From a virus (Duplodnaviria; Caudoviricetes), in the IMG/VR virus record IMGVR_UViG_3300009431_000002, positions 1-64,000 of that record: a stretch of 64,000 nt of DNA. The stretch is one strand, 5' to 3'. The number at the start of each line of letters is the position of its first letter. The stretch's first letter is position 1. Position numbers and translations under genes: made by a program. The notes under the pieces are model-generated. The model was not told the origin of the DNA and did no database searches. It saw only the letters and a list, made by a program, of their open reading frames with translations. Shown here piece after piece: positions 3 to 26,747 of this stretch.

Positions 3-911
3 GGAGGTCTTCTCTGCTGCGTCCGCCTTCGCGGCCTCGGCCTTGGCCGCCTCCTCTTCCAGCACGGGCTGCATGGCGCGGTTCATGCCGTACAGGTACC
101 CGCCGCCGCCACCACCGAGGAAGCCGAGGGTGCTGCCGAGGCTGGCAGCCCCGGCGGCGGGCGCCGTGGCCTGCTCACGCAGCAGGTGTGCTTTCTGCTC
201 GGCGTCGAACAGCGCCTTCCTCGCGGACCCCAGCTCGTCGAACGCGTCGGACGACTCTCGTGAGGCCTGGGTGAACGCGTCGCTCATCTCCTGCGACCGT
301 CTGGCGAAGTCGTCCGCCCACTGCTCCGGATGGCCGGACCGCAGCCCACCACCCCGGGACGCCGCCCTCCAGGCGTCGTCTGCCCGGTCCACACGCTGCT
401 GCGCCGCCCGCAGCAGGTCGTCGGCCTGGGCCGCCAACGCCCGACCGCGCCCACGCGTCAGCAGTGCCGCACCGCCACCGAGCAGGGCCCCGCCGGCGAC
501 GGCGCCACCGAGCGACCCGAGCAGTCCGCCTGCTTGGCCGCCGAGCTCGCCGCGAACGGCCATCTCGGCCTTGCGGCCCTCGGGGGCTTTGTTGAGCCCG
601 ACGATGGCGCCGACACCGGGCACCACGGCCGTCTTCTCCACGCCCGCCTTCTTCTCCGGCTTGTGGTCCAGCGGGAAGTCCCGGTCGGTCTTGTGGTCGA
701 AGTGCTCGCCCAGGAAGCCGTCGTGGCCCTGACGGGCCAGCCGGTGGGCCTCCGGCGAGAGCTTGTCGTTCTGCGCCGGCACGCGGTCCCAGCCAGGCTC
801 GGCGGCGGGGTCCTGCTTGGGCTTGGGGTAGGCCGAGACGCTGCCCACGCGGGCGTCCTCGTTGGTCTCCAGCTGCGACGCAGCCAACTTCAGTGCCTCG
901 GTCACGCTCAT
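3..911 (-). CDS. Gly/Ala-rich putative virion protein with EKTA/EKKA motifs (3' end runs off the window)
   Basis: Manually translated open frame from ATG at 911 (MSVTEALKLAASQLETNED...VEKTAVVPGVG...) with no stop before base 1; begins 10 nt after the stop of the 921..1403 ORF. Confidence 0.75.
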   Translation of the reverse strand, partial: MSVTEALKLAASQLETNEDARVGSVSAYPKPKQDPAAEPGWDRVPAQNDKLSPEAHRLARQGHDGFLGEHFDHKTDRDFPLDHKPEKKAGVEKTAVVPGVGAIVGLNKAPEGRKAEMAVRGELGGQAGGLLGSLGGAVAGGALLGGGAALLTRGRGRALAAQADDLLRAAQQRVDRADDAWRAASRGGGLRSGHPEQWADDFARRSQEMSDAFTQASRESSDAFDELGSARKALFDAEQKAHLLREQATAPAAGAASLGSTLGFLGGGGGGYLYGMNRAMQPVLEEEAAKAEAAKADAAEKTS

Positions 912-1808: not shown

Positions 1809-4800
1809 CTACCCGACCATGGCCCGGGACTTGAGCGCCTTCACATAGGCGAGGACGCGGTCACGCCGCGCGATACGCTGATCGAGCGACACTGCAATCG
1901 GCTCCTCCTTCCCGCGTCCATCGACACGCGCGAAGGTCTGATCCTCCCTGGACAGGTCCACAGGCTCACCGGCCTCGTCGGTCAGCAGTCCGTGCAGGTT
2001 CTCCAGCGGGGCCACGGCGCGGCTGTGGAACCCCTCGTCTGGCGAGCCGTCGAATGGGAGGCCGAGCTCAGCGTACGTCTTCCGCCGCCCCATCTCGTCG
2101 TACTCCAGCTCGGCGCCTCCGAGGATGTCCTTCAGCGTCGCCACGGGCCGGTGGATGTAGTTCCACGCCATCTTGTCGGCGCCGCCGTGCTCCTTGGCGT
2201 AGCCGTAGACGATGGCCAGGGCGTCGAGCATCTGCGCCACGGAGACTGTCCTCGATGCGTCGTCGCCGAGCTGCACGGTGCTGACGACGTCGGCGTACTT
2301 GCTGTTGGGGTCCACCACGAACCGCTCCTGGTCCGTCGCCACGGTCTTCCCCTCTGCCTCCACACCGCCGAGGAGCTCGGCGTCCTCGTCCGACCCAGGC
2401 ACGGGCACCGGGCGCTCCGGCTCCCCGACCTCACGCGCGGCGAAGACGTGCTCGTCGACCAGCGACCCCGTCCCGAAGAACACTTGGTAGATCTTCTCGC
2501 CGATCTCCTTGTTGCCGTAGTGCGGGGACACCCACGGGGGACGCAGCGCCTCCTCGGCCGGCATGTCGAACGACAGCGTCCCGAGGACCTCGGCCGCGCG
2601 AGCCGGGTCGATGGTCTCCGTGACGACCACGGTGTCGTAGTAGAAGTACCTGGCGCCGCTGCCCGACTCCTCGTACCGGATGACGCCGTCCGACCGCAGG
2701 CTGTGGATGGGGCCCTGGACACCTGTGTCGCCGATGCCCTTGGCGCAGTCGTTGCCGCTGCCCTTGGTCACCCGCTCTCCTGTCTCGTCGTCCATCGGCT
2801 CGACGCCGAGTACACGGTAGGGGGTGCCGGGCCCCGCCTCGTACACCGGGTCAGGCGGCACGACGCCACCGCTGCCGAAGATGGACCCGTCGGCCGTCCG
2901 CGGGAAGATCGGGTTGGGCGTCAGGTCCTTGAGCAGGTCCAGCAGGTCCTGGTGCCCCGCCTCCAGGAGCTGGTCGTACTGGAGGATGAACACGACGGCC
3001 GTCTGCTCGCTGGCCGCCACCTCCTGCTCGGTGATGGCCATGTTGAGGTACTCGTCGTCCGTGCCGTCCGCGGAGCGGTGGGCGCGGCAGAAGTTGAGGA
3101 CCCCCGAGGTGTAGCCGCCCTGCTGGTCCGCGACGATCTCCATGCTGCTGCACAGACCCAGGAACTGGGTGGGGAAGCGGATCTCCTGACCCAGCCCGGC
3201 CTCGACCGCAGGCACGTAGCCAGATCCAACAGCCTCGATCAGCTCCCGTTGGCTCACGCCGTCCGGCACGTGCATGGGCTTGTCGAGGATGGCCATGGGG
3301 AAGCCGCAGACCGGCAGGTAGTTGAACTGCCCGCTGAACTGGATGACCCTCGGTGCGAACCGGAACCGGAAGAAGTTGTGGTGCGCCACCCTCTGGGCCC
3401 AGCTGTTCTGCACGTCCTTGGCGTTCTCGGTACCCGCTGTCTGCGAGGCCACGTAGTCCCGCTGGGCCTTGTTGGCGTAGAACTTCACCTCGCTGACCGA
3501 GTGCATCTTCGGCACGATGCCGGAGTGCACCTCGTGCGGCATGATGATGGCCGACTGCGTGTAGTACGAGCTCCCGGCCAGGTCGAGCATCCCCGACAGG
3601 TCGGGCGCGTAGTAGAAGTAGTCGAGCAGCTCGTCCGGCCCGATGAGCTCCATGCTCGACCGGAGCTGGTAGCGCGTGCACTCCCGCAGGAGCTGCCGGT
3701 TGAGCGAGAACGAGTTGTAGTGCTCTGGGAACAGGACGTTGCACCGCGGCGGCGCAGCGAACCAGATGTCGGGCCGGAAGATCTGCGTGTTGAGCCGTGC
3801 CCCCGAGGTGTACTCGACCGTCTTGCTCCCCGTCGTCGTGTGGTTGAGGGCTGCCTCGATGGACGCCTTCGCCAGCTCGAGCTTGCGGAGCGCGGTCTCG
3901 GCCTTCTGCGTCGTCGGCGACCCCGTGGTCGACGCAGCCGTTCGCGCCTCGACGATGTCCGCCAGCGCCATCTCGACGTCGGTGTAGGGCTGCGTCCCGA
4001 TGTGGTCGTCGAGCCCGGGGATCACGGTGTTGTCCATGTACCGCCAGATCCCCCACACCATCGACGCGATGTCGATGTCCTCCTCCGTGGGCGTCGCCGG
4101 CGCCGACTCGTCCGTGAACGAGGTCACAGACTGCTCGACGGACGCCGTGCTCGTGGTCAGCGGTGCACCCACGCTCCACAGCACCGTACTCTCGTCTTCG
4201 GGCTGGCTGCTCGCCTCGATGGCGGCGACGACGTCCTCGATGTCGGTCTTCACCTTCGTGAGGTGGCCGCGGCTCTCGCCCGTGATGGTGGACGCGTAGG
4301 TCGGCTCGTCGTAGCTGCCCGGCTCGCCGCCCGCCGTGAAGTACGGAGCGGGGCACGGGACCATCGAGTACGTGATGTACTGGCCCACCATCCGCAGGAT
4401 GTCGCGGATGGACATGAGCCCGCCACCGCCGCCGAGCGAGTTGGTGAGCCACTGGCTGAAGACCTTGCGGTTGAACAGGTCGATGCCGGTGGTGTCATCC
4501 AGGTCCGTGGCGATCTGCCACAGCAGCTTGTTGCGCAGCTCCTCGACCGTGTTGAAGTCGTTCACCCCCTTGAAGTCGCCGGGGATGCCACCGACCGCCT
4601 CGATGACCGACACAAGTCCAGCGAGGAGCCCCTGGAGCTGCTTGAACTCGTGGAACTTCGGCGTCTTCCGCTGGAGCAGGCTGCCGACCACCGACGCGGG
4701 GTCGTTGATGATGTCGTCGAACAGGTTGGTGTTGGCGCCGATCATCCGGGCGTTGCTGCCCATGATCCCGGACCCGCGGGGGCCGTAGGTCAGCATGAAC

Positions 4801-11349: not shown

Positions 11350-12208
11350 GCACGTCGAGCCGGACGGTGGCTGGGGCAAGCCCACGGGTACGCCACCGCC
11401 CGACTGGGCCGCGTGGCGGGAGGAGCAGGGGCACTACGTGGTCCAGCTCCGCAACGGCAGCGAGGAGGTCTACGGCCTCGTCACGGTGGTGCTGCTGAGC
11501 ATCCGGAGCGCCTTCGCCCCCGCCACCGAAGAGGAGATGCGGGCGATGGAGCCCACCCAGCTCGGCGACGAGCTGCGGAAGGCCACCTCCCTCTACGACC
11601 TCGTGATGATGGCCCAGGACCCGGAGTACCGCGAGCAGGTCTCCCCGGACAACATCGCGTTCCTCAAGCGCTTCAATCTCGTCGAGGCCGACGGGCGCAT
11701 GCACGGGTCCACCCGCAACATCGTCCGCTCGGCGTTCGAGATCGGCGCCAAGGGCCAGATGCCGGTCCAGAACAATCCGCTGCTTCGCAGGGGCGACGTG
11801 CCCGACCGTCGGGAGGACAAGTCGTTCGAGGACCCGCTGATGCGGATGATGCGGACGACGCCGAGCCCCGTCGCCGACCCCATCCCGGAGGTGCCGGGGG
11901 ACCAGCGGCCCGTCGCGGGCGAGGTGTTCGTCGGCAAGGCCTCCCGCGGCCGCGTGGTGGTGCTGCCGCCGTCGATGAACCCGAGCATCTTCCCGCACCA
12001 CGACACGGTGGTCTACACCAACGAGAAGTGGCCCACGGAGGAGCACCTCCAGTCCCACCAGCCGCACACCATGCGGACCGCGGTGTTCCTGGACACGTTC
12101 GACCGCGTCGAGGACGACGTCATCGGCACCGAGCAGCTGCGGGAGATCGCCAGCCGCTTCGGCGACCCCAACCAGTGGATCCACGCCGACAAGGAGACCG
12201 AGGAGTAG
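11327..12208 (+). CDS. Hypothetical protein
   Basis: Start reassigned to MTDSNGTEH; strong GC3 bias. Confidence 0.7.
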   Translation: MTDSNGTEHVEPDGGWGKPTGTPPPDWAAWREEQGHYVVQLRNGSEEVYGLVTVVLLSIRSAFAPATEEEMRAMEPTQLGDELRKATSLYDLVMMAQDPEYREQVSPDNIAFLKRFNLVEADGRMHGSTRNIVRSAFEIGAKGQMPVQNNPLLRRGDVPDRREDKSFEDPLMRMMRTTPSPVADPIPEVPGDQRPVAGEVFVGKASRGRVVVLPPSMNPSIFPHHDTVVYTNEKWPTEEHLQSHQPHTMRTAVFLDTFDRVEDDVIGTEQLREIASRFGDPNQWIHADKETEE

Positions 12209-12235
12209 CCTGAGTCCCTCCAGCCGGAGGGGCCA

Positions 12236-12258
12236 GGGGCGCGCCCGACGCGCGCCCC
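12236..12258. terminator. GC hairpin between convergent units
   Basis: GGGGCGCGC-ccgac-GCGCGCCCC followed by a T-rich stretch on the plus strand. Confidence 0.5.
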
Positions 12259-12272
12259 GCTTATCTTAGAGT

Positions 12273-12349
12273 TGGTGCGGGTGCTCGGGATCGAACCGAG
12301 GACCTCCTGGTCCCGAACCAGGCGCGCTACCAGACTGCGCTACACCCAC
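12273..12349 (-). tRNA. tRNA-Pro(CGG)
   Basis: Cloverleaf; CCTGG-TT CGG GA-CCAGG; CCA encoded; G1:C72. Confidence 0.93.
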
Positions 12350-12352
12350 ACC

Positions 12353-12429
12353 TGGGGCCGACGCTCGGAATCGAACCGAGAACCTGCTGATTACGAGTCA
12401 GCTGCTCTGCCTGGTTGAGCTACGTCGGC
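12353..12429 (-). tRNA. tRNA-Thr(CGT)
   Basis: GCTGA-CT CGT AA-TCAGC; CCA encoded. Confidence 0.95.
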
Positions 12430-12430
12430 G

Positions 12431-12507
12431 TGGTGCCCCGACCCTGAATTGAACAGGGGACCCCGGACTTATCAGGTCCGTGCTCTACCGGACTGAGCTA
12501 CCGGGAC
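12431..12507 (-). tRNA. tRNA-Ile(GAT)
   Basis: CGGAC-CT GAT AA-GTCCG; CCA encoded. Confidence 0.95.
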
Positions 12508-12556
12508 ACGGGAACTATTCAGTTGTGCATAGGTGCGCCCACCCGGACCGGGCGGG

Positions 12557-12592
12557 CTAGATAATGGTCGTAGGTGGTGTCAGCCAACGCAT
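12557..12592 (-). CDS. Leaderless leader peptide MRWLTPPTTII (Ile/Thr/Pro operon)
   Basis: ATG CGT TGG CTG ACA CCA CCT ACG ACC ATT ATC TAG, 6 nt after TG-C-TACAGT; hairpin GCCCGCCCG-GTC-CGGGTGGGC at the stop. Confidence 0.8.
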   Translation of the reverse strand: MRWLTPPTTII

Positions 12593-12598
12593 GAGGGC

Positions 12599-12607
12599 AC
12601 TGTAGCA
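12599..12607 (-). promoter_or_regulatory. Extended -10 promoter TG-C-TACAGT
   Basis: Identical motif at 14181-14189; no good -35. Confidence 0.6.
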
Positions 12608-12622
12608 CAGGAGGTAGGGTTG

Positions 12623-12676
12623 TGGTAGCCCGACCCGGACTCGAACCGGGGACCTTCGGTATCTAGCCGAAGATCC
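12623..12676 (-). pseudogene. 3' half of a tRNA (anticodon arm remnant, T-arm, acceptor strand, CCA)
   Basis: TTCGG-CTAGATA-CCGAA GGTC CCCGG-TTCGAGT-CCGGG TCGGGCT A CCA; overlaps the stop codon of the 12663 ORF; no matching 5' acceptor strand. Confidence 0.7.
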
Positions 12677-13424
12677 CTTCCACGCGGCCGGCTCGACCCG
12701 ACTGAGTCAGGGTCTTCCCCATGATGTGCCGGGCTTGTCGTTGGGCCATCTCGCCCGCCTGCTCTGGTGACATCTCCGGTAGTTCCTTGGCGCCTCGGAG
12801 GAATCTCCTCTTCATGGCGGCCGGGACCCTCTGGCCGCTTTCCAGGAATTGATGAGCGCGGGGGTCCTTGAACACCTGCGCGAACTGCTGACGGAGAAGC
12901 TCGGTTTCCCCGGTAGCCTCTCTCATTTCCCGCAGTCGCCGGGCAGCGTGCCTCAAGCTCTTGGCTTGCCCCTTCGGAGCGGCCAGACGGTTCAGGAGGT
13001 TCAACTCCTCTACCAGCACTCCGGGGCTGAGGTGAAGACTCTTGCCTAGAGGTACGGCCTTCCTCTCCAACCCCTCATGCAGCGTGAGGAGTGTCTTTGG
13101 GCCACGGCCTTCCACCCCAGGGAGCAGGCCCTTTGCCGCAGACGGGCCGTAGAAGATTCTCCCGGCGTGACGCCCGTACCTGGACTGGAGAGCCTGCACC
13201 AGCTCTTCTGGGATCATTCCCCGCTGCCACTCGAAGAACTCTGGATGCTTGAGGGACTTGCGGATGTGGGCCTTCGTCGGGATCAGCGTCGCTCCCAGCT
13301 GACCCGCCAGCCCCCTAGACCTGGTAGGTGCCAGTCTCCTGGCTGCCGCGTACAGCTCCTGAGCGGACGCAGCCTCCTTGATCTTGCAGAGCTCGTCAAC
13401 GAAAGCCGGGAAGGAGGGACTCAC
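12663..13424 (-). CDS. Hypothetical protein with N-terminal FVDELCKIKEAA motif
   Basis: ORF track; codon usage less GC3-biased than flanks; contains LHEGLE segment. Confidence 0.7.
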   Translation of the reverse strand: MSPSFPAFVDELCKIKEAASAQELYAAARRLAPTRSRGLAGQLGATLIPTKAHIRKSLKHPEFFEWQRGMIPEELVQALQSRYGRHAGRIFYGPSAAKGLLPGVEGRGPKTLLTLHEGLERKAVPLGKSLHLSPGVLVEELNLLNRLAAPKGQAKSLRHAARRLREMREATGETELLRQQFAQVFKDPRAHQFLESGQRVPAAMKRRFLRGAKELPEMSPEQAGEMAQRQARHIMGKTLTQSGRAGRVEGIFG

Positions 13425-13433
13425 GCTCAGAGA

Positions 13434-13829
13434 CTACCCCACCTCGTAGTCGGCCGTAAAGCGGATACCCTTCTTCTGCCCGTTCTTGGGCGGGGTGATC
13501 CGCAACGCGGCTACGCGGATGGCTACATCTTCTACGGGCACCAGGTAGACCTTGTCCAGATCGGGGCAGTAGACACCGAAGAGCTCGACTTGCCCCCTGT
13601 ACCCCTTCCGCTTCCTGGTGCGGTAATCCACGCTGCAGGGGTCGAACTGCACCGCGCCGTTCCGCAGGCGCCCGGTCTTGCACTGGATGCGCTTGAACTC
13701 CCCGTCGTCGTCCATGACGAGGTCGTACCGTTGGTTGTCCCCGAAGGGCTGGAGCATGACCTTCCCTGCCTTGAGGAGGGTGCCGAGGATCACGCCTTCC
13801 GACTTCTCACCGACTTCCTTGGTGTTCAT
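13434..13829 (-). CDS. PD-(D/E)XK family endonuclease (homing-type)
   Basis: GEKSEGVI...PFGDNQRYDLVMD...IQCKTG; leaderless promoter upstream. Confidence 0.85.
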   Translation of the reverse strand: MNTKEVGEKSEGVILGTLLKAGKVMLQPFGDNQRYDLVMDDDGEFKRIQCKTGRLRNGAVQFDPCSVDYRTRKRKGYRGQVELFGVYCPDLDKVYLVPVEDVAIRVAALRITPPKNGQKKGIRFTADYEVG

Positions 13830-13835
13830 GGGGCC

Positions 13836-13864
13836 AGCGTACCTGAGAGCGTCGGGTAGGTCAA
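13836..13864 (-). promoter_or_regulatory. Promoter TTGACC-17-TACGCT, 6 nt before ATG (leaderless)
   Basis: Read directly. Confidence 0.7.
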
Positions 13865-13874
13865 CCGGAGGTGT

Positions 13875-13950
13875 TGGTAGGTCTGGCTGGGCTCGAACCA
13901 GCGACTTCTGCCGTGTGAAAGCAGCACTCTCCCAACTGAGTTACAGACCC
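13875..13950 (-). tRNA. tRNA-Val(CAC)
   Basis: CTGCT-TT CAC AC-GGCAG; CCA encoded. Confidence 0.93.
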
Positions 13951-13988
13951 ACTGACACCGCTGCTCTCCCTAGCTGAGCTACCGGCCC
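13951..13988 (-). pseudogene. 5' half of a tRNA (acceptor strand + D-arm), truncated
   Basis: GGGCCGG TA GCTC AGCTAGGGA GAGC A GCGG... abutting tRNA-Val; no T-arm. Confidence 0.65.
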
Positions 13989-13989
13989 G

Positions 13990-14066
13990 TGGTGGAGGCG
14001 ACAGGAATCGAACCTGCGACCTGCTGCGTGCAAGGCAGCTGCTCTCCCAGCGTGAGCTACGCCCCC
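13990..14066 (-). tRNA. tRNA-Ala(TGC)
   Basis: GCTGC-CT TGC AC-GCAGC; G3:U70; CCA encoded. Confidence 0.95.
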
Positions 14067-14111
14067 ACGGCGAAGATGTAGATGTAGAGGGTCGCTCCCC
14101 GAACCGGGGAG

Positions 14112-14174
14112 CTAGATCGCGGCCACGACAACTGGCAGCGCGAGGAAGACGGAGAGTCGTGCGAGACGTTCCAT
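14112..14174 (-). CDS. Leaderless leader peptide MERLARLSVFLALPVVVAAI (Ala/Val operon)
   Basis: 6 nt after TG-C-TACAGT; hairpin GCTCCCCG-GTT-CGGGGAGC at the stop. Confidence 0.8.
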   Translation of the reverse strand: MERLARLSVFLALPVVVAAI

Positions 14175-14180
14175 GCCGCG

Positions 14181-14189
14181 ACTGTAGCA
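14181..14189 (-). promoter_or_regulatory. Extended -10 promoter TG-C-TACAGT
   Basis: Identical to 12599-12607. Confidence 0.6.
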
Positions 14190-14193
14190 CAAG

Positions 14194-14269
14194 TGGCGCG
14201 AGCTGTGGGAATCGAACCCACCCAGTTGGTTTTGGAGACCAACTCGCCTGCCTTGGGACATGAGCCCGC
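14194..14269 (-). tRNA. tRNA-Trp(CCA)
   Basis: TTGGT-CT CCA AA-ACCAA; atypical D-arm; CCA encoded. Confidence 0.88.
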
Positions 14270-14271
14270 AC

Positions 14272-14347
14272 TGGAACCCCCGACTGGACTCGAACCAGCG
14301 CACGGCGGATTAGAACTCCGCTGCTCTTCCAACTGAGCTACGGGGGC
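14272..14347 (-). tRNA. tRNA-Arg(TCT)
   Basis: GCGGA-GT TCT AA-TCCGC; CCA encoded. Confidence 0.9.
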
Positions 14348-14404
14348 CGACTTGACTGAACTCCCCTACTTGACCGGCTGCTCAAGCGGCCGGGTTTGGT
14401 CAAG

Positions 14405-14480
14405 TGGTACAGACGTCAGGGGTCGAACCTGAAACCACTGGGGCCACATCCCAGCGCTCTGCCAGTTGAGCTACGTCTGC
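14405..14480 (-). tRNA. tRNA-His(GTG)
   Basis: CTGGG-AT GTG GC-CCCAG; A73 and no encoded G-1. Confidence 0.88.
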
Positions 14481-14483
14481 ACG

Positions 14484-14561
14484 TGGTACCCGCGGGAGGA
14501 CTCGAACCTCCGACCTTCCGGTTCGTAGCCGGACGCTCTAGGTCCACTGAGCTACGCGGGC
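14484..14561 (-). tRNA. tRNA-Arg(ACG)
   Basis: TCCGG-CT ACG AA-CCGGA; CCA encoded. Confidence 0.95.
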
Positions 14562-14564
14562 ACG

Positions 14565-14639
14565 TGACCCCGGCAGGACTCGAACCTGCGACCTCCGCGT
14601 CCGGAGCGCGGCGCTCTGGGTCCACTGAGCTACGGGGCC
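14565..14639 (-). tRNA. tRNA-Arg(CCG), CCA not encoded
   Basis: CCGCG-CT CCG GA-CGCGG. Confidence 0.92.
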
Positions 14640-14651
14640 GGTTGTCAAAGA

Positions 14652-14727
14652 TGGCGGTGCCGCCAGGACTCGAACCTGGAACCAGAGCGTTAACAGCGCC
14701 CCGCTCTAGCCATTGAGCTACGACACC
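14652..14727 (-). tRNA. tRNA-Asn(GTT)
   Basis: GGGCG-CT GTT AA-CGCTC; G1:C72; CCA encoded. Confidence 0.93.
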
Positions 14728-14728
14728 G

Positions 14729-14803
14729 TGGTTGCTGCGCCTGGGGTCGAACCAGGGACCTGCCGGTTATGAGCCGGCTGCTCTACCGCTGAGCCACGCA
14801 GCA
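14729..14803 (-). tRNA. tRNA(CAT), elongator Met more likely than Ile2; not initiator
   Basis: GCCGG-CT CAT AA-CCGGC; lacks the GGG/CCC initiator stem. Confidence 0.85.
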
Positions 14804-14806
14804 TCG

Positions 14807-14879
14807 AGGGTCGACCGGGACTCGAACCCGGATCTCCGGATTAAAGGTCCAGGGCGTTATCCATTACGCTCATCGACCC
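14807..14879 (-). tRNA. tRNA-Lys(TTT), CCA not encoded, C33
   Basis: CTGGA-CC TTT AA-TCCGG; acceptor GGGTCGA/TCGACCC. Confidence 0.8.
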
Positions 14880-14880
14880 A

Positions 14881-14956
14881 TGGAGGGTGGAGGGGGACTC
14901 GAACCCCCAACCGCCGGATTAAGAGTCCAGCGCTCTACCTGTTGAGCCATCCACCC
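14881..14956 (-). tRNA. tRNA-Lys(CTT)
   Basis: CTGGA-CT CTT AA-TCCGG; CCA encoded. Confidence 0.95.
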
Positions 14957-14962
14957 GCAGTT

Positions 14963-15008
14963 CTCCGTCTCCACCTGCCGCCCCTTCGGGCAACAAGTAG
15001 ACACGGAG
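14963..15008 (-). promoter_or_regulatory. Long leader hairpin (putative attenuator element)
   Basis: CTCCGT/ACGGAG, TCTACTTG/CAGGTGGA, TTGCCC-GAAG-GGGCGG; G-U pairs work only on the minus strand. Confidence 0.65.
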
Positions 15009-15022
15009 GGGCGGACGCAGAT

Positions 15023-15073
15023 TTACCTGTGCTTGTTCCAGCGGTGCATGAAGGTGGGTCTGACGAAGGTCAT
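15023..15073 (-). CDS. Leaderless leader peptide MTFVRPTFMHRWNKHR (Lys/Met/Asn/Arg/His/Trp operon)
   Basis: ATG ACC TTC GTC AGA CCC ACC TTC ATG CAC CGC TGG AAC AAG CAC AGG TAA, 6 nt after TACGCT. Confidence 0.85.
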   Translation of the reverse strand: MTFVRPTFMHRWNKHR

Positions 15074-15079
15074 GTGGCG

Positions 15080-15108
15080 AGCGTAGACCAGCTCGAGATG
15101 GAGGTCAA
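15080..15108 (-). promoter_or_regulatory. Promoter TTGACC-17-TACGCT
   Basis: Read directly; same hexamers as 13836-13864. Confidence 0.75.
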
Positions 15109-15111
15109 CGG

Positions 15112-15195
15112 ATCCCGACATGAATCCCGACTTCGTGTCGGGATAGCCCCACGCACGTCATCCGGATCCCGACAGGGGTTGACGACACAGTGTCG
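15112..15195. repeat. Operator-like repeats between divergent tRNA promoters
   Basis: ATCCCGAC at 15112, 15124, 15166 and inverted at 15137-15144; palindrome CGACAC-A-GTGTCG at 15183-15195. Confidence 0.6.
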
Positions 15196-15207
15196 CCGTG
15201 CTGTACT
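15179..15207 (+). promoter_or_regulatory. Promoter TTGACG-17-TGTACT, 7 nt before ATG
   Basis: Paralogous to TTGACA-17-TGTAGT at 18744-18772; -10 is non-canonical. Confidence 0.6.
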
Positions 15208-15214
15208 CCGGCCC

Positions 15215-15271
15215 ATGCACTCCTTCGACATCCAATTCGGATTGTCGCTACAGCTCCTGGGTACCCAGTAG
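15215..15271 (+). CDS. Leaderless leader peptide MHSFDIQFGLSLQLLGTQ (Leu/Gly/Gln operon)
   Basis: Read directly; paralog at 18678-18737; followed by alternative GC hairpins. Confidence 0.85.
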   Translation: MHSFDIQFGLSLQLLGTQ

Positions 15272-15327
15272 TCGCCGCCCCCGTACGCCCGTAACCCCGG
15301 GTAGCCGGGGGCGGGAGAAGTGCGTTT

Positions 15328-15413
15328 GGGAGAGTGGCGGAATGGTAGACGCGCGGGTTTCAGGAGCTCGTGTCCTTCGCGGCGTGGGGGTTCGACTCCC
15401 CCCTCTCCCACCA
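15328..15413 (+). tRNA. tRNA-Leu(CAG)
   Basis: CGGGT-TT CAG GA-GCTCG; long variable arm; A73, CCA. Confidence 0.93.
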
Positions 15414-15415
15414 GT

Positions 15416-15500
15416 GCCGGAGTGGCGGAACGGTAGACGCGCGGGTCTGAGGGGCTCGTGTCCGAGTGGCGTCCGGGTTCGACTCCCGGTTCCGGCACCA
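15416..15500 (+). tRNA. tRNA-Leu(GAG)
   Basis: CGGGT-CT GAG GG-GCTCG; long variable arm; CCA. Confidence 0.93.
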
Positions 15501-15514
15501 CAACAAGAACTCGT

Positions 15515-15592
15515 GCGGGAGTAGCTCCAACTGGCTAGAGCAGCGGCCTTCCAAGCCGACGGTTCAGGGTTCGAGCCCCTGTTCCCGCACCA
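15515..15592 (+). tRNA. tRNA-Gly(TCC)
   Basis: CGGC-CT TCC AA-GCCG; A73; CCA. Confidence 0.9.
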
Positions 15593-15593
15593 T

Positions 15594-15671
15594 GTGCCGG
15601 GGCGCAAGGCGTCATAGGGAGAAGGGGACGGCCTCGCTCCTGTTTCGCGTGGGGAAACCCACCCCCGGCAC
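15594..15671 (+). ncRNA. Unclassified tRNA-sized structured RNA
   Basis: 9-bp GTGCCGGGG/CCCCGGCAC closing stem, GTGGG-GAAA-CCCAC arm, two inner hairpins; no TTC loop, no CCA. Confidence 0.5.
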
Positions 15672-15673
15672 CT

Positions 15674-15749
15674 GTGGGCATGGCGCAGTCGGTGGCGCGT
15701 CGGGTTGCCAATCCGAAGGTCGCGGGTTCGAGCCCCGCTGCCCACACCA
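15674..15749 (+). tRNA. tRNA-Gly(GCC) with atypical acceptor
   Basis: TCGGG-TT GCC AA-TCCGA; U2:A71, A73; CCA. Confidence 0.87.
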
Positions 15750-15757
15750 ACAGCTTT

Positions 15758-15846
15758 GCGAGCGTGGCGGAATTGGTATACGCGCCGGATTCAAAATCCG
15801 GTGGTCCTTCGCGGCCGTGCAGGTTCGATGCCTGCCGCTCGCACCA
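15758..15846 (+). tRNA. tRNA-Leu(CAA)
   Basis: CCGGA-TT CAA AA-TCCGG; long variable arm; CCA. Confidence 0.95.
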
Positions 15847-15848
15847 GA

Positions 15849-15924
15849 TGGGGAGTAGTTCAGTTGGTAGAACGGTTGGCTCTGGACCAGCATGTCGGGG
15901 GTTCGAGTCCCTCCTCCCCATCCA
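15849..15924 (+). tRNA. tRNA-Gln(CTG)
   Basis: GTTGG-CT CTG GA-CCAGC; U1:A72; CCA. Confidence 0.93.
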
Positions 15925-15981
15925 TCGTGAAACCCGGCTCGAAATCGGGATAAGGGCCCCGAACCCGAAGCAGGAGGTAGC

Positions 15982-18060
15982 ATGCCCGAATTCAAGCCGT
16001 TCGCCGAGCTTGTCCGATCCGCGTTCCAGGAGATGGCCGCCGGTGGGCTCTTCGTCGTCAACATCAGTGGGGACGACCTGTACGAGTCCTACCTGGGTGC
16101 GTTCCCGGACGGCACCAATCCCGTCTTCCGTGAGCGCACCGAGCACGACTGCAGCAGCTGCAAGCACTTCATCCGCCGCGTGGGCATGGTCATCGACCAG
16201 GACCGCAACACGGTCTGGGACAAGGCCGCCCGAACGGCCGAGTACCCCTACAACGAGGTGGCCTCCGACCTGGCCGCCATGGTCAAGGCCGCTCCGATCC
16301 GCGACGTCTTCCGCGTCCAGGAGAGCGGCATCGGCACCGCCATGAACCGCGGCGTGAGCCCGTCGGGCCAGGTCGAGCGCTGGCACCACTTCCACACCGG
16401 CAGCATCCCGAAGCGCTTCCGCGCGGCGAGCCCGGGGGAGGCCCAGGGCGCGTACCGCACCACCGTCCAGGTCTTCCGGCGCGGGCTGGAGGAGCTGACC
16501 ACCGACGCCCTGGAGACCGTGCTGGCGCTGATCGACGCCAACAACCTCTATCGGGGCGAGGAGCACCGCGAGAAGGTGGCGGGCTTCCTCAAGACGCAGC
16601 AGGAGTTCCTCGACCTCGGCGCCGTTGACCGGGAGCGCTTCGTCTGGGCACGCGCCGACGACCCGGCCACCCGCTTCCGCAACACCGCCATCGGCACCCT
16701 GGTCCAGGACCTGAGCGAGGGCATGGACGTCACGAAGGCGGTCAAGCGGTTCGAGGCGAAGGTCGCGCCGGAGAACTACAAGCGCACCTCGGCCGTCATC
16801 ACCCCCGGCATGGTCAAGGAGGCCATGAAGACCATCACGACGATGGATCTGGAGCCCGCCCTGGAGCGGCGGTTCGCCCGCGTCGAGGACGTCAACGTCA
16901 ACGACGTGCTGTGGGTGGACAACCAGGTCAAGCCGCTGATGGCCGGCGGCCTCGGCGACATGCTCATGGACCACGCCCAGGCAGCGCAGGGCTACGAGCT
17001 CGACGAGAAGCGCGCCGAGGACATCGCCGTCGACGAGTTCCTGGCCAGCGTGCTCCCCGAGGCCGCGGCCGTGGAGCTGCTGCTGAAGACCGCGCACCTG
17101 GGCAACCTGATGTCGCTCACGGCGCCGGTCCACCCGGCGCCCCACCAGCTGTTCCAGTGGGACAACGACTTCGCCTGGTCCTACGCCGGCAACATGGCCG
17201 ACTCCGAGCTGCGCAAGCGCGTGTCCGCCGCCGGCGGACGCGTGGACGGGGCGTTCCGCTTCTCTCACTCGTGGAACCACGACAAGCGCAACGCCTCGCT
17301 GATGGACCTCCACGTCTTCATGCCCGGGAACGGGACCTCGTACTCCCGGCCCGGGACCACCCACGACGTCTACGGCAACAACGAGCGCGTGGGGTGGAAC
17401 CACCGACAGCATCCCAGGTCCGGCGGCGTCCAGGACGTGGACTACGTGAAGGAGGCGCCTCCCGGGTACATCCCCGTCGAGAACATCACGTTCCCCGACA
17501 TCACGCGGATGCGTCCCGGCACGTATATCTGCAAGATCCACAACTGGCAGCTCCGACAGCCCACGCAGGGCGGCTTCCAGGCCGAGATCGAGTTCGGCGG
17601 GCAGGCGTTCACCTACGAGCACCTGGCACCCCTCAAGCACAAGGAGTGGGTGACGGTCGCCACGGTGACGCTGAAGCATGGCGAGTTCTCCATCGAGCAC
17701 CACCTGCCGTGCGGCACGGCCGCCCAGGAGAAGTGGGGCCTGACGTCCGAGCGGTTCGTCAAGGTCAACTTCGTGACCCTGAGCCCCAACCACTGGGGCG
17801 ACAACGCCGTGGGCAACCGCCACACGCTCTTCGTGCTCGACGGCGCGAAGAACGACGAGCCCTGCCGAGGCATCTACAACGAGTTCCTGCACCCCCGCCT
17901 GATCAAGCACCGCAAGGTGTTCGAGGTCATCGGCGACAAGACGAAGTGCCAGCCCACCGAGGGCCAGCTGTCCGGCGTCGGCTTCTCGTCCACGAAGCGC
18001 GACGCCGTGCTCATCAAGATCGACAACCAGCGCCTGTACCGCGTCCGGTTCGGCGCGTAG
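15982..18060 (+). CDS. Large conserved-looking phage protein (692 aa), function unknown
   Basis: AGGAGG RBS; YLxxFPxGTN...EHDCSSCKHFI N-terminal Cys motif; RFSHSWN...MDLHV C-terminal beta domain. Confidence 0.85.
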   Translation: MPEFKPFAELVRSAFQEMAAGGLFVVNISGDDLYESYLGAFPDGTNPVFRERTEHDCSSCKHFIRRVGMVIDQDRNTVWDKAARTAEYPYNEVASDLAAMVKAAPIRDVFRVQESGIGTAMNRGVSPSGQVERWHHFHTGSIPKRFRAASPGEAQGAYRTTVQVFRRGLEELTTDALETVLALIDANNLYRGEEHREKVAGFLKTQQEFLDLGAVDRERFVWARADDPATRFRNTAIGTLVQDLSEGMDVTKAVKRFEAKVAPENYKRTSAVITPGMVKEAMKTITTMDLEPALERRFARVEDVNVNDVLWVDNQVKPLMAGGLGDMLMDHAQAAQGYELDEKRAEDIAVDEFLASVLPEAAAVELLLKTAHLGNLMSLTAPVHPAPHQLFQWDNDFAWSYAGNMADSELRKRVSAAGGRVDGAFRFSHSWNHDKRNASLMDLHVFMPGNGTSYSRPGTTHDVYGNNERVGWNHRQHPRSGGVQDVDYVKEAPPGYIPVENITFPDITRMRPGTYICKIHNWQLRQPTQGGFQAEIEFGGQAFTYEHLAPLKHKEWVTVATVTLKHGEFSIEHHLPCGTAAQEKWGLTSERFVKVNFVTLSPNHWGDNAVGNRHTLFVLDGAKNDEPCRGIYNEFLHPRLIKHRKVFEVIGDKTKCQPTEGQLSGVGFSSTKRDAVLIKIDNQRLYRVRFGA

Positions 18061-18537: not shown

Positions 18538-18622
18538 TGGCGGAGAGGGTGGGAATCGAACCCACACGCCCGAAGACACGAGGTCCTGAACCCCGCGCGT
18601 CTACCAATTCCGCCACTCTCCC
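18538..18622 (-). tRNA. tRNA-Leu(CAG) copy with a Ser-like 3' end (chimera, G73)
   Basis: 5' part near-identical to 15328 copy; 3' end CCCTCTCC G CCA; acceptor pairs only as 6 bp GGAGAG/CTCTCC. Confidence 0.75.
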
Positions 18623-18677
18623 ACACGCACTTCTCCCGCCCCCGGCTACCCGGGGTTCGGGCGTACGGGGGCGGCGA

Positions 18678-18737
18678 CTACTGGATACCCAGAAGCTGGA
18701 GCGACAATCCGAGGACTTGGATGTCGGAGACGTGCAT
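18678..18737 (-). CDS. Leaderless leader peptide MHVSDIQVLGLSLQLLGIQ (duplicate Leu leader)
   Basis: 6 nt after TTGACA-17-TGTAGT; paralog of 15215-15271. Confidence 0.8.
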   Translation of the reverse strand: MHVSDIQVLGLSLQLLGIQ

Positions 18738-18743
18738 GGGGGC

Positions 18744-26580: not shown

Positions 26581-26591
26581 TCAAACCTCTG

Positions 26592-26637
26592 CTCTCCCAT
26601 CCTGCGCCCCTTCGGGGCCAGGACAGGTCACGGAGAG
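26592..26637 (-). promoter_or_regulatory. Long leader hairpin homologous to 14963-15008
   Basis: CTCTCC/GGGAGAG, TCCTG/CAGGA, GCCCC-GAAG-GGGC. Confidence 0.65.
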
Positions 26638-26649
26638 ACGCAGACGCAG

Positions 26650-26712
26650 TTATGCGGAGTCGCTATCGAAGCAATAGGAAGACGATGACAGGAGGGGTGC
26701 AGCGGTGTGCAT
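26650..26712 (-). CDS. Leaderless leader peptide MHTAAPLLSSSSYCFDSDSA (Cys/Phe/Asp/Tyr/Ser operon)
   Basis: ATG CAC ACC GCT GCA CCC CTC CTG TCA TCG TCT TCC TAT TGC TTC GAT AGC GAC TCC GCA TAA, 6 nt after TACGGT. Confidence 0.88.
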   Translation of the reverse strand: MHTAAPLLSSSSYCFDSDSA

Positions 26713-26718
26713 GGGGCG

Positions 26719-26747
26719 ACCGTACCTCAGCCTGTCGAGGAGGTCAA
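26719..26747 (-). promoter_or_regulatory. Promoter TTGACC-17-TACGGT
   Basis: Read directly. Confidence 0.75.

Follow-up and report, generated by a model that had tools for sequence, protein, structure and literature searches.

A leader ORF whose codon tail matches the tRNA-Ala and tRNA-Val genes behind it, one of six such modules heading the tRNA operons of a giant phage

Leader-peptide transcription attenuators govern several enterobacterial amino-acid operons (trpL, hisL, pheL, thrL, ilvL), each operon carrying its own leader: a short upstream ORF whose C-terminal codons name the metabolite class under control, followed by an RNA hairpin next to the stop. In actinobacteria, a 5'-terminal ATG suffices for translation (Shell et al., 2015; PMC4633059), and leaderless short ORFs act as amino-acid-responsive attenuators, among them the polycysteine short ORFs of mycobacteria (Canestrari et al., bioRxiv 10.1101/834739). 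In Rho-dependent leader control, such as tnaC of the Escherichia coli tna operon, the position of the ribosome at or near the leader stop codon could decide access to the RNA just downstream. Phage tRNA arrays, in contrast, are usually treated as constitutive codon-usage helpers or as spare parts against tRNA-cleaving defenses, and how their expression is controlled is largely unknown. Full-text literature searches found no description of leader peptides before tRNA genes or controlling them.

The element described here lies in the first 64 kb (the window) of a 201,921-bp, 67%-GC phage record rated complete, IMG/VR record IMGVR_UViG_3300009431_000002. All 29 tRNA genes of the phage fall within the window, in a few arrays, and cover 19 amino acids, with Glu missing. 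In a 127-nt minus-strand spacer between tRNA-Trp and tRNA-Ala(TGC), an ORF of 20 codons plus TAG encodes MERLARLSVFLALPVVVAAI. A first-pass annotation made from the sequence alone had proposed a leader before tRNA-Ala and tRNA-Val, with VVVAA immediately before the stop, an earlier GCA codon, a stop-overlapping hairpin, and a C-rich, G-poor tract resembling a Rho utilization site. That observation is confirmed by direct reading of the sequence, with two small corrections. An Ile codon (ATC) separates VVVAA from the stop, and bases 14175-14189, which had been included in the annotated span, are not coding but hold a spacer and most of a promoter-like element. The tail GTT GTC GTG GCC GCG uses three Val and two Ala synonymous codons, and GCA is codon 5. 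The hairpin (-16.2 kcal/mol) begins on the G of TAG, and the 27-nt tract behind it has 11 C, 3 G, 5 A, and 8 T.

The ORF does not resemble an ordinary protein gene. Its GC3 is 70% against 92% in the genes of the phage, six of 19 codons are rare A/T-ending ones, and its coding score is 0.09 bit per codon against 0.4-0.8 for genes. No Shine-Dalgarno sequence is present, and the JGI gene caller did not call it. A covariance-model scan of 12000-16500 against Rfam at E up to 1 returns only tRNA-related hits and nothing in 14067-14193, which offers no match to a T-box or other curated RNA leader.

A search of the genome for pieces of the spacer revealed a wider design. The hairpin, the linker, and a 39-nt core do not recur elsewhere in the genome, but the 11-mer TGTGCTACAGT, followed by N6-ATG, occurs exactly once more in 202 kb, also on the minus strand and in the only other long spacer of the same array. 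The second ORF, MRWLTPPTTII, ends in ATC TAG like the first, and its TAG likewise opens a GC hairpin (9 bp, including one G-U pair). Inspection upstream of every other array uncovered the same build each time: a promoter-like -10 element, 6-7 nt, an ATG, an 11-20-codon ORF, a GC hairpin starting 0-14 nt after the stop, and then tRNA genes. Six modules of this design, named A, B (the ORF of interest), C, D, D2, and E, head every tRNA transcription unit of the phage (Table 1).

Table 1. Positions of the leader modules and of neighboring elements (window coordinates unless another sequence is named).
Feature	Position	Strand	Description
Module A	15023..15108	-	TTGACC-17-TACGCT-6-ATG; before tRNA Lys, Lys, Met, Asn, Arg, Arg, His, Arg, Trp
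Leader ORF A	15073..15023	-	MTFVRPTFMHRWNKHR
Module A hairpin	15008-14963	-	Long hairpin
tRNA-Trp	14269-14194		Upstream border of the module B spacer
Module B promoter-like element	14181..14191	-	TGTGCTACAGT, TGn-extended -10
Module B hexamer	14186-14181	-	TACAGT
Module B spacer	14180-14175	-	CGCGGC; places the A of the ATG 6 nt after the hexamer, where a transcription start is expected
Leader ORF B	14112..14174	-	MERLARLSVFLALPVVVAAI; ATG 14174-14172, TAG 14114-14112
Module B tail	14118..14132	-	GTT GTC GTG GCC GCG (VVVAA)
Predicted in-ORF hairpin	14117..14143	-	CGCGCTGCCA / TGGCCGCG, Val codons in the loop
Stop-overlapping hairpin	14094..14112	-	GCTCCCCG-GTT-CGGGGAGC, 8 bp, triloop, no U tract after it
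G-poor linker	14067..14093	-	GACCCTCTACATCTACATCTTCGCCGT, with the direct repeat CTACAT x2
tRNA-Ala(TGC)	13990..14066	-	First cargo of module B
tRNA-like stretch	13951-13989	-	CGGGCCGGTAGCTCAGCTAGGGAGAGCAGCGGTGTCAGT, 39 nt
tRNA-Val(CAC)	13875..13950	-	Second cargo of module B
Endonuclease gene	13434-13864	-	PD-(D/E)XK, PF11645; TTGACC-17-TACGCT-6-ATG begins right after tRNA-Val
ARAGORN tRNA-Ser(aga) call	12623-12699	-	77 nt
Module C	12537..12609	-	TGTGCTACAGT-6-ATG; before tRNA Ile, Thr, Pro
Leader ORF C	12592..12557	-	MRWLTPPTTII
Module C hairpin	12557-12537	-	GCCCGCCCG-GTC-CGGGTGGGC, stop-overlapping
Array-end hairpin	12236-12258		GC-rich, 9-10 bp
Module D	15179..15319	+	TTGACG-17-TGTACT-7-ATG, then a hairpin; before tRNA Leu, Leu, Gly, Gly, Leu, Gln
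Leader ORF D	15215..15271	+	MHSFDIQFGLSLQLLGTQ
Leader D plus tRNA-Leu(CAG)	15213-15403	+	Duplicated in inverted orientation about 3 kb away
Copy of leader D plus tRNA-Leu(CAG)	18546-18739	-	Inverted copy
Module D2	18678..18737	-	Duplicate of D; ORF MHVSDIQVLGLSLQLLGIQ before a lone tRNA-Leu(CAG)
DUF8224 gene	15982-18060	+	692 aa, phrog_1735
Module E	26585..26747	-	TTGACC-17-TACGGT-6-ATG, then a long hairpin; before tRNA Cys, Phe, Asp, Tyr, Ser, Ser, Ser
Leader ORF E	26712..26650	-	MHTAAPLLSSSSYCFDSDSA
CcrRogue leader ORF	4151-4246 of NC_019408.1		MSKSYRQFVQIQVVRNF...

The leader tails match the tRNA cargo. Residues belonging to the leader's own tRNA set number 9/15 in A ({K,M,N,R,H,W}, with the last eight all in the set), 8/19 in B ({A,V}), 7/10 in C ({I,T,P}), 9/17 in D ({L,G,Q}), and 11/19 in E ({C,F,D,Y,S}), while counts for foreign sets are 0-5. 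Only the true leader-to-operon pairing, 1 of 120, reaches the observed sum of 44, and all 19 amino-acid species that have a phage tRNA appear in their own leader. At the codon level, 9/15 codons of A and 10/19 of E are readable by their own operon's tRNAs. Among 921 ATG ORFs of 10-30 codons in the whole genome, the C-terminal cognate runs of A, B, C, and E are each matched only by the leader itself; for B, the criterion was a run of at least five Ala/Val residues ending within one residue of the C-terminus. Ala and Val make up 4 of 61 residues in the other four leaders. Module B is nonetheless the weakest of the six when taken alone. Ala and Val are common in GC-rich ORFs, and only 4 of 19 codons (GCA, GCG twice, and GTG) are readable by the two encoded tRNAs, whereas GTT, GTC, and GCC are not. 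The 39-nt stretch between tRNA-Ala and tRNA-Val looks like the 5' part of a tRNA (acceptor strand, D arm, start of the anticodon stem) and may be the remnant of a lost Val or Ala isoacceptor, which could explain these unreadable codons. Module B gains its weight from the system around it and from its paralogue C, and its ORF is very probably a functional leader.

The promoter geometry suggests leaderless transcripts. A scan for E. coli-type promoters and terminators found nothing in the leaders, but the -10 elements are of the TAnnnT type. A dedicated pattern, TTGACN-16..18-TAnnnT-6..7-ATG/GTG, occurs five times in the genome and 0 times in 20 shuffles. Two of the five are leaders A and E, and three are protein genes, including the endonuclease gene inside the array, so leaderless promoters appear to be in general use in this phage. 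B and C lack a recognizable -35 element. No RNA, transcription-start, or ribosome data exist: no sequencing run contains the leader, and contigs from four metatranscriptomes cover only tRNA bodies and come from other organisms. The host is unknown, although the TAnnnT elements, the high GC content, and a weak pointer, a homologue in Tessaracoccus 36% identical to the neighboring 414-aa ATPase (AAA+/Mg-chelatase-like domains), point to actinobacteria. The embedded endonuclease is of the group I intron-associated type, and its homologues are widespread.

B and C, A and E, and D and D2 are paralogous pairs. Within each pair, the promoter and the post-stop hairpin are kept, with compensating differences in the stems, and the codon tail differs according to the cargo, although D2 keeps the Leu/Gly/Gln tail while only one Leu tRNA follows it. 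The hairpins of B and C start on the same G of TAG with different stem sequences, and A and E share the promoter and a long post-stop hairpin with a GAA/GAAG loop. All six leaders have a hairpin of -16 kcal/mol or stronger starting 0-14 nt after the stop, whereas by manual count only about 8 of 141 protein genes have one of -12 kcal/mol or stronger within 15 nt of the stop.

Only one informative relative was found. Megablast against phages returned no match, IMG/VR scans with the hairpin, the tRNA-Val core, and three neighboring proteins gave nothing useful, and a metagenome scan with the tRNA-Val core found nothing. The DUF8224 protein encoded right after the tRNA array, whose function is unknown, has more than 2,000 homologues at E<=1e-50 in metagenomic databases and matches in 537 phage records of very diverse hosts. 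Two homologues at about 60% identity (L008, L009) lie in regions with no tRNA-sized intergenic gap next to the gene and so appear to lack the array there, although these regions were not scanned for tRNAs. The informative relative, a 2.4-kb contig (L010), encodes an endonuclease 92% identical and keeps leader D. The cognate Leu/Gly/Gln codons of D show four synonymous and no nonsynonymous changes, while the other codons show one synonymous and three nonsynonymous. For module B, L010 keeps the promoter-like element (TGTGCTACGGT-N7-ATG) and the first 14 codons, ATG to CCA, with one synonymous change. One deletion of about 75 nt has removed the end of the ORF, the hairpin, the linker, and the first 20 nt or so of tRNA-Ala, so this decayed copy gives no independent test of tail conservation. 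Comparison of L010 1-900 with 13860-14680 of the window shows the array in flux: L010 lacks tRNA-His and tRNA-Arg(acg), has a different tRNA-Trp, lacks the 39-nt tRNA-like stretch, and carries an orphan opposite-strand ORF between tRNA-Trp and module B. The tRNA-Ser(aga) called by ARAGORN is not detected by Rfam, overlaps the 3' end of the 253-aa ORF, and has a good T arm but a poor acceptor stem. A similar tRNA-like 3' half lies at 1700-1750 of L010. The called tRNA is probably a tRNA-like relic or a 3' structure rather than a working tRNA.

The opposite-strand ORF of L010, 112 codons as called and overlapping the shared block, at first suggested that leader B is the relic of a deleted gene. 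Few stop codons occur in GC-rich DNA, which is in favor of a chance ORF. Both readings are now regarded as very unlikely. The first 28 codons of the L010 ORF have lower GC3 (about 71% against about 82% for the rest, by manual count), the ORF most likely starts at its internal ATG outside the block (84 codons), and it has no homologues or domains. The block has the same promoter-ATG geometry as module C, which together with the six-module pattern led to rejection of the relic reading, and the tail statistics argue against chance.

A second alternative holds that the region is only an internal promoter plus a pre-tRNA 5' leader, with the ORF an incidental frame that is not sensed and the conserved block reflecting promoter and processing signals. 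The non-genic codon usage, the absence of a gene call, and the identity of the 39-nt block shared with L010 even at synonymous sites are consistent with this view. However, it does not explain why six independent leader frames list the amino acids of their own tRNA cargo, why paralogous modules differ precisely in that tail, or why cognate codons of D changed only synonymously, and it is considered improbable. A small hydrophobic membrane peptide that acts in trans is less likely still; the first-pass annotation had named a membrane protein with no cis effect on tRNA levels in advance as the outcome that would overturn its proposal. Although LSVFLALPVVVAAI is hydrophobic, the stretch is 14 residues, short for a membrane span, and the sister leaders built the same way (MTFVRPTFMHRWNKHR, MRWLTPPTTII, MHTAAPLLSSSSYCFDSDSA) are polar or basic. 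L010 has lost the C-terminal part, and there the frame runs on into the tRNA.

The interpretation in the first-pass annotation is partly supported. Its core idea, a leader peptide whose Val/Ala codons relate in cis to the tRNA genes behind it, is strongly supported by evidence it did not use: the five further modules, the swapped tails, and the changes in leader D of L010. The Rho component is not established. The C-rich tract of B is only 27 nt, a comparable G-poor linker exists only in C, and in A, D, and E the hairpin abuts the tRNA within 6-12 nt. The transcribed strand is C-rich over G across the six leader ORFs (111 C against 70 G) and the C/G ratio of the whole leader is 1.48, which is suggestive at most and leaves a Rho-type utilization region neither supported nor excluded. 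No experiment on Rho was part of this analysis, and no arrest-peptide motif is evident.

The favored explanation, held with fair confidence, is that ORF B is a real, translated, cis-acting sensor of Val/Ala decoding that gates tRNA-Ala/Val output. In this view, the TGn-extended -10 element probably starts transcription on the A of the ATG, giving a leaderless mRNA that a 70S ribosome can translate without a Shine-Dalgarno sequence. The ribosome would read a short neutral head and then a tail of Val and Ala codons in several synonymous forms, and its speed through the tail would decide whether it sits on, or has already left, the RNA at the stop codon, where the hairpin and the linker precede the tRNAs. 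That in turn would set how much transcript continues into, or matures as, the two tRNAs. The analysis itself demonstrates the anatomy, the six-fold repetition, and the match between leader tails and tRNA cargo, whereas the transcription start, translation, the output step (hairpin occlusion, Rho, or processing), and the sign of the response are inferences. The preferred sign is homeostatic, with slow decoding of Val/Ala codons raising tRNA-Ala/Val output, following the logic of amino-acid operon attenuators.

The same sensor might instead work with the opposite sign or through a different output. Only a ribosome that completes the leader would reach the stop and melt the hairpin, be it a pause, a terminator, or a processing block, so that tRNA-Ala/Val would be made only when Val/Ala codons are decoded well. 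Such a licensing or private stringent-type control would also insulate the unit from untranslated read-through from the upstream operon. Alternatively, the output might be RNase processing or stability of the precursor rather than transcription termination. In 5 of 6 modules the hairpin starts 0-5 nt after the stop, where a terminating ribosome would unwind it, and most cognate codons lie too far upstream for a stalled ribosome to cover it. With a single hairpin, only stalls at the last 2-3 codons could occlude it directly, and the geometry therefore fits the opposite sign equally well. In A, D, and E, the proximity of the hairpin to the tRNA 5' end makes it part of the RNase P substrate. Most strong gene-end hairpins in the genome also lack U tracts, as does the one at the convergent end of the minus-strand tRNA array and a plus-strand gene on the array strand, so such hairpins may act as terminators in this host. 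Nevertheless, positive feedback on tRNA supply has no obvious benefit, and every characterized leader-peptide attenuator works the homeostatic way (trpL, hisL, pheL, and the mycobacterial Cys short ORFs; 10.1101/834739), making this alternative possible but doubtful.

A broader hypothesis, judged slightly more likely than not, is that each tRNA operon of this phage is gated by its own leaderless codon-list leader, giving five independent decoding sensors that together cover all 19 amino acids for which the phage carries tRNAs. The phage would then supply a tRNA class on demand when the host pool fails through codon-usage mismatch, host shut-off, or tRNA-cleaving defense nucleases, in a loop worked through U-tract-less hairpins in a high-GC host. 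A leader that lists the codons served by the tRNAs behind it would mean that phages measure decoding speed class by class and answer with the matching tRNAs, extending ribosome-mediated attenuation from amino-acid metabolism to the tRNA pool itself. The design, with the same promoter and hairpin and an exchangeable codon tail, is a compact, testable, and possibly portable sensor of tRNA availability, for which B and C form a natural pair for swap experiments.

A comparable arrangement exists in a cultured phage, Caulobacter phage CcrRogue, where an unannotated ORF, MSKSYRQFVQIQVV..., whose residues match the downstream tRNA set, precedes tRNA Phe, Val, Ile, Ile, Val, Gln, Gln and could serve as an experimental model, whereas no such leader was found in Streptomyces phage Success. 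The modules described here are leaderless by geometry, use GC hairpins without U tracts, and partition all 19 amino acids over five operons. Like tnaC, they might couple ribosome position near the stop to access to downstream RNA, but a rut site of usual length is not evident, the linker being 27 nt in B and absent in A, D, and E. Like the mycobacterial polycysteine short ORFs, each appears to be a leaderless 5'-ATG short ORF as the first cistron of an operon, with a run of codons that could be read out through ribosome pausing and many loci coordinated by the same principle; here, however, the element is in a phage, each tail lists 2-6 amino acids, and the downstream genes are tRNAs without a ribosome-binding site. 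The resemblance to trpL-type attenuators lies in the short ORF, 45 nt upstream of tRNA-Ala on the same strand of a transcript not itself observed, in the cognate C-terminal codons, and in the hairpin next to the stop, and the multi-amino-acid tails resemble thrL and ilvL. The hairpin of B is followed by GACCCTCTAC, which has no U tract, and a consensus terminator scan finds no terminator in any leader. Minimum-free-energy folds of B show two independent hairpins and no competing helix or 2:3 antiterminator pairing, but the only relative lacks this part and offers no covariation, so that mutually exclusive pairing is neither upheld nor ruled out. The tails also sample several synonymous codons, and the cargo is tRNA genes rather than biosynthetic enzymes or aminoacyl-tRNA synthetases, so the sensed species and the product are nearly the same molecule.
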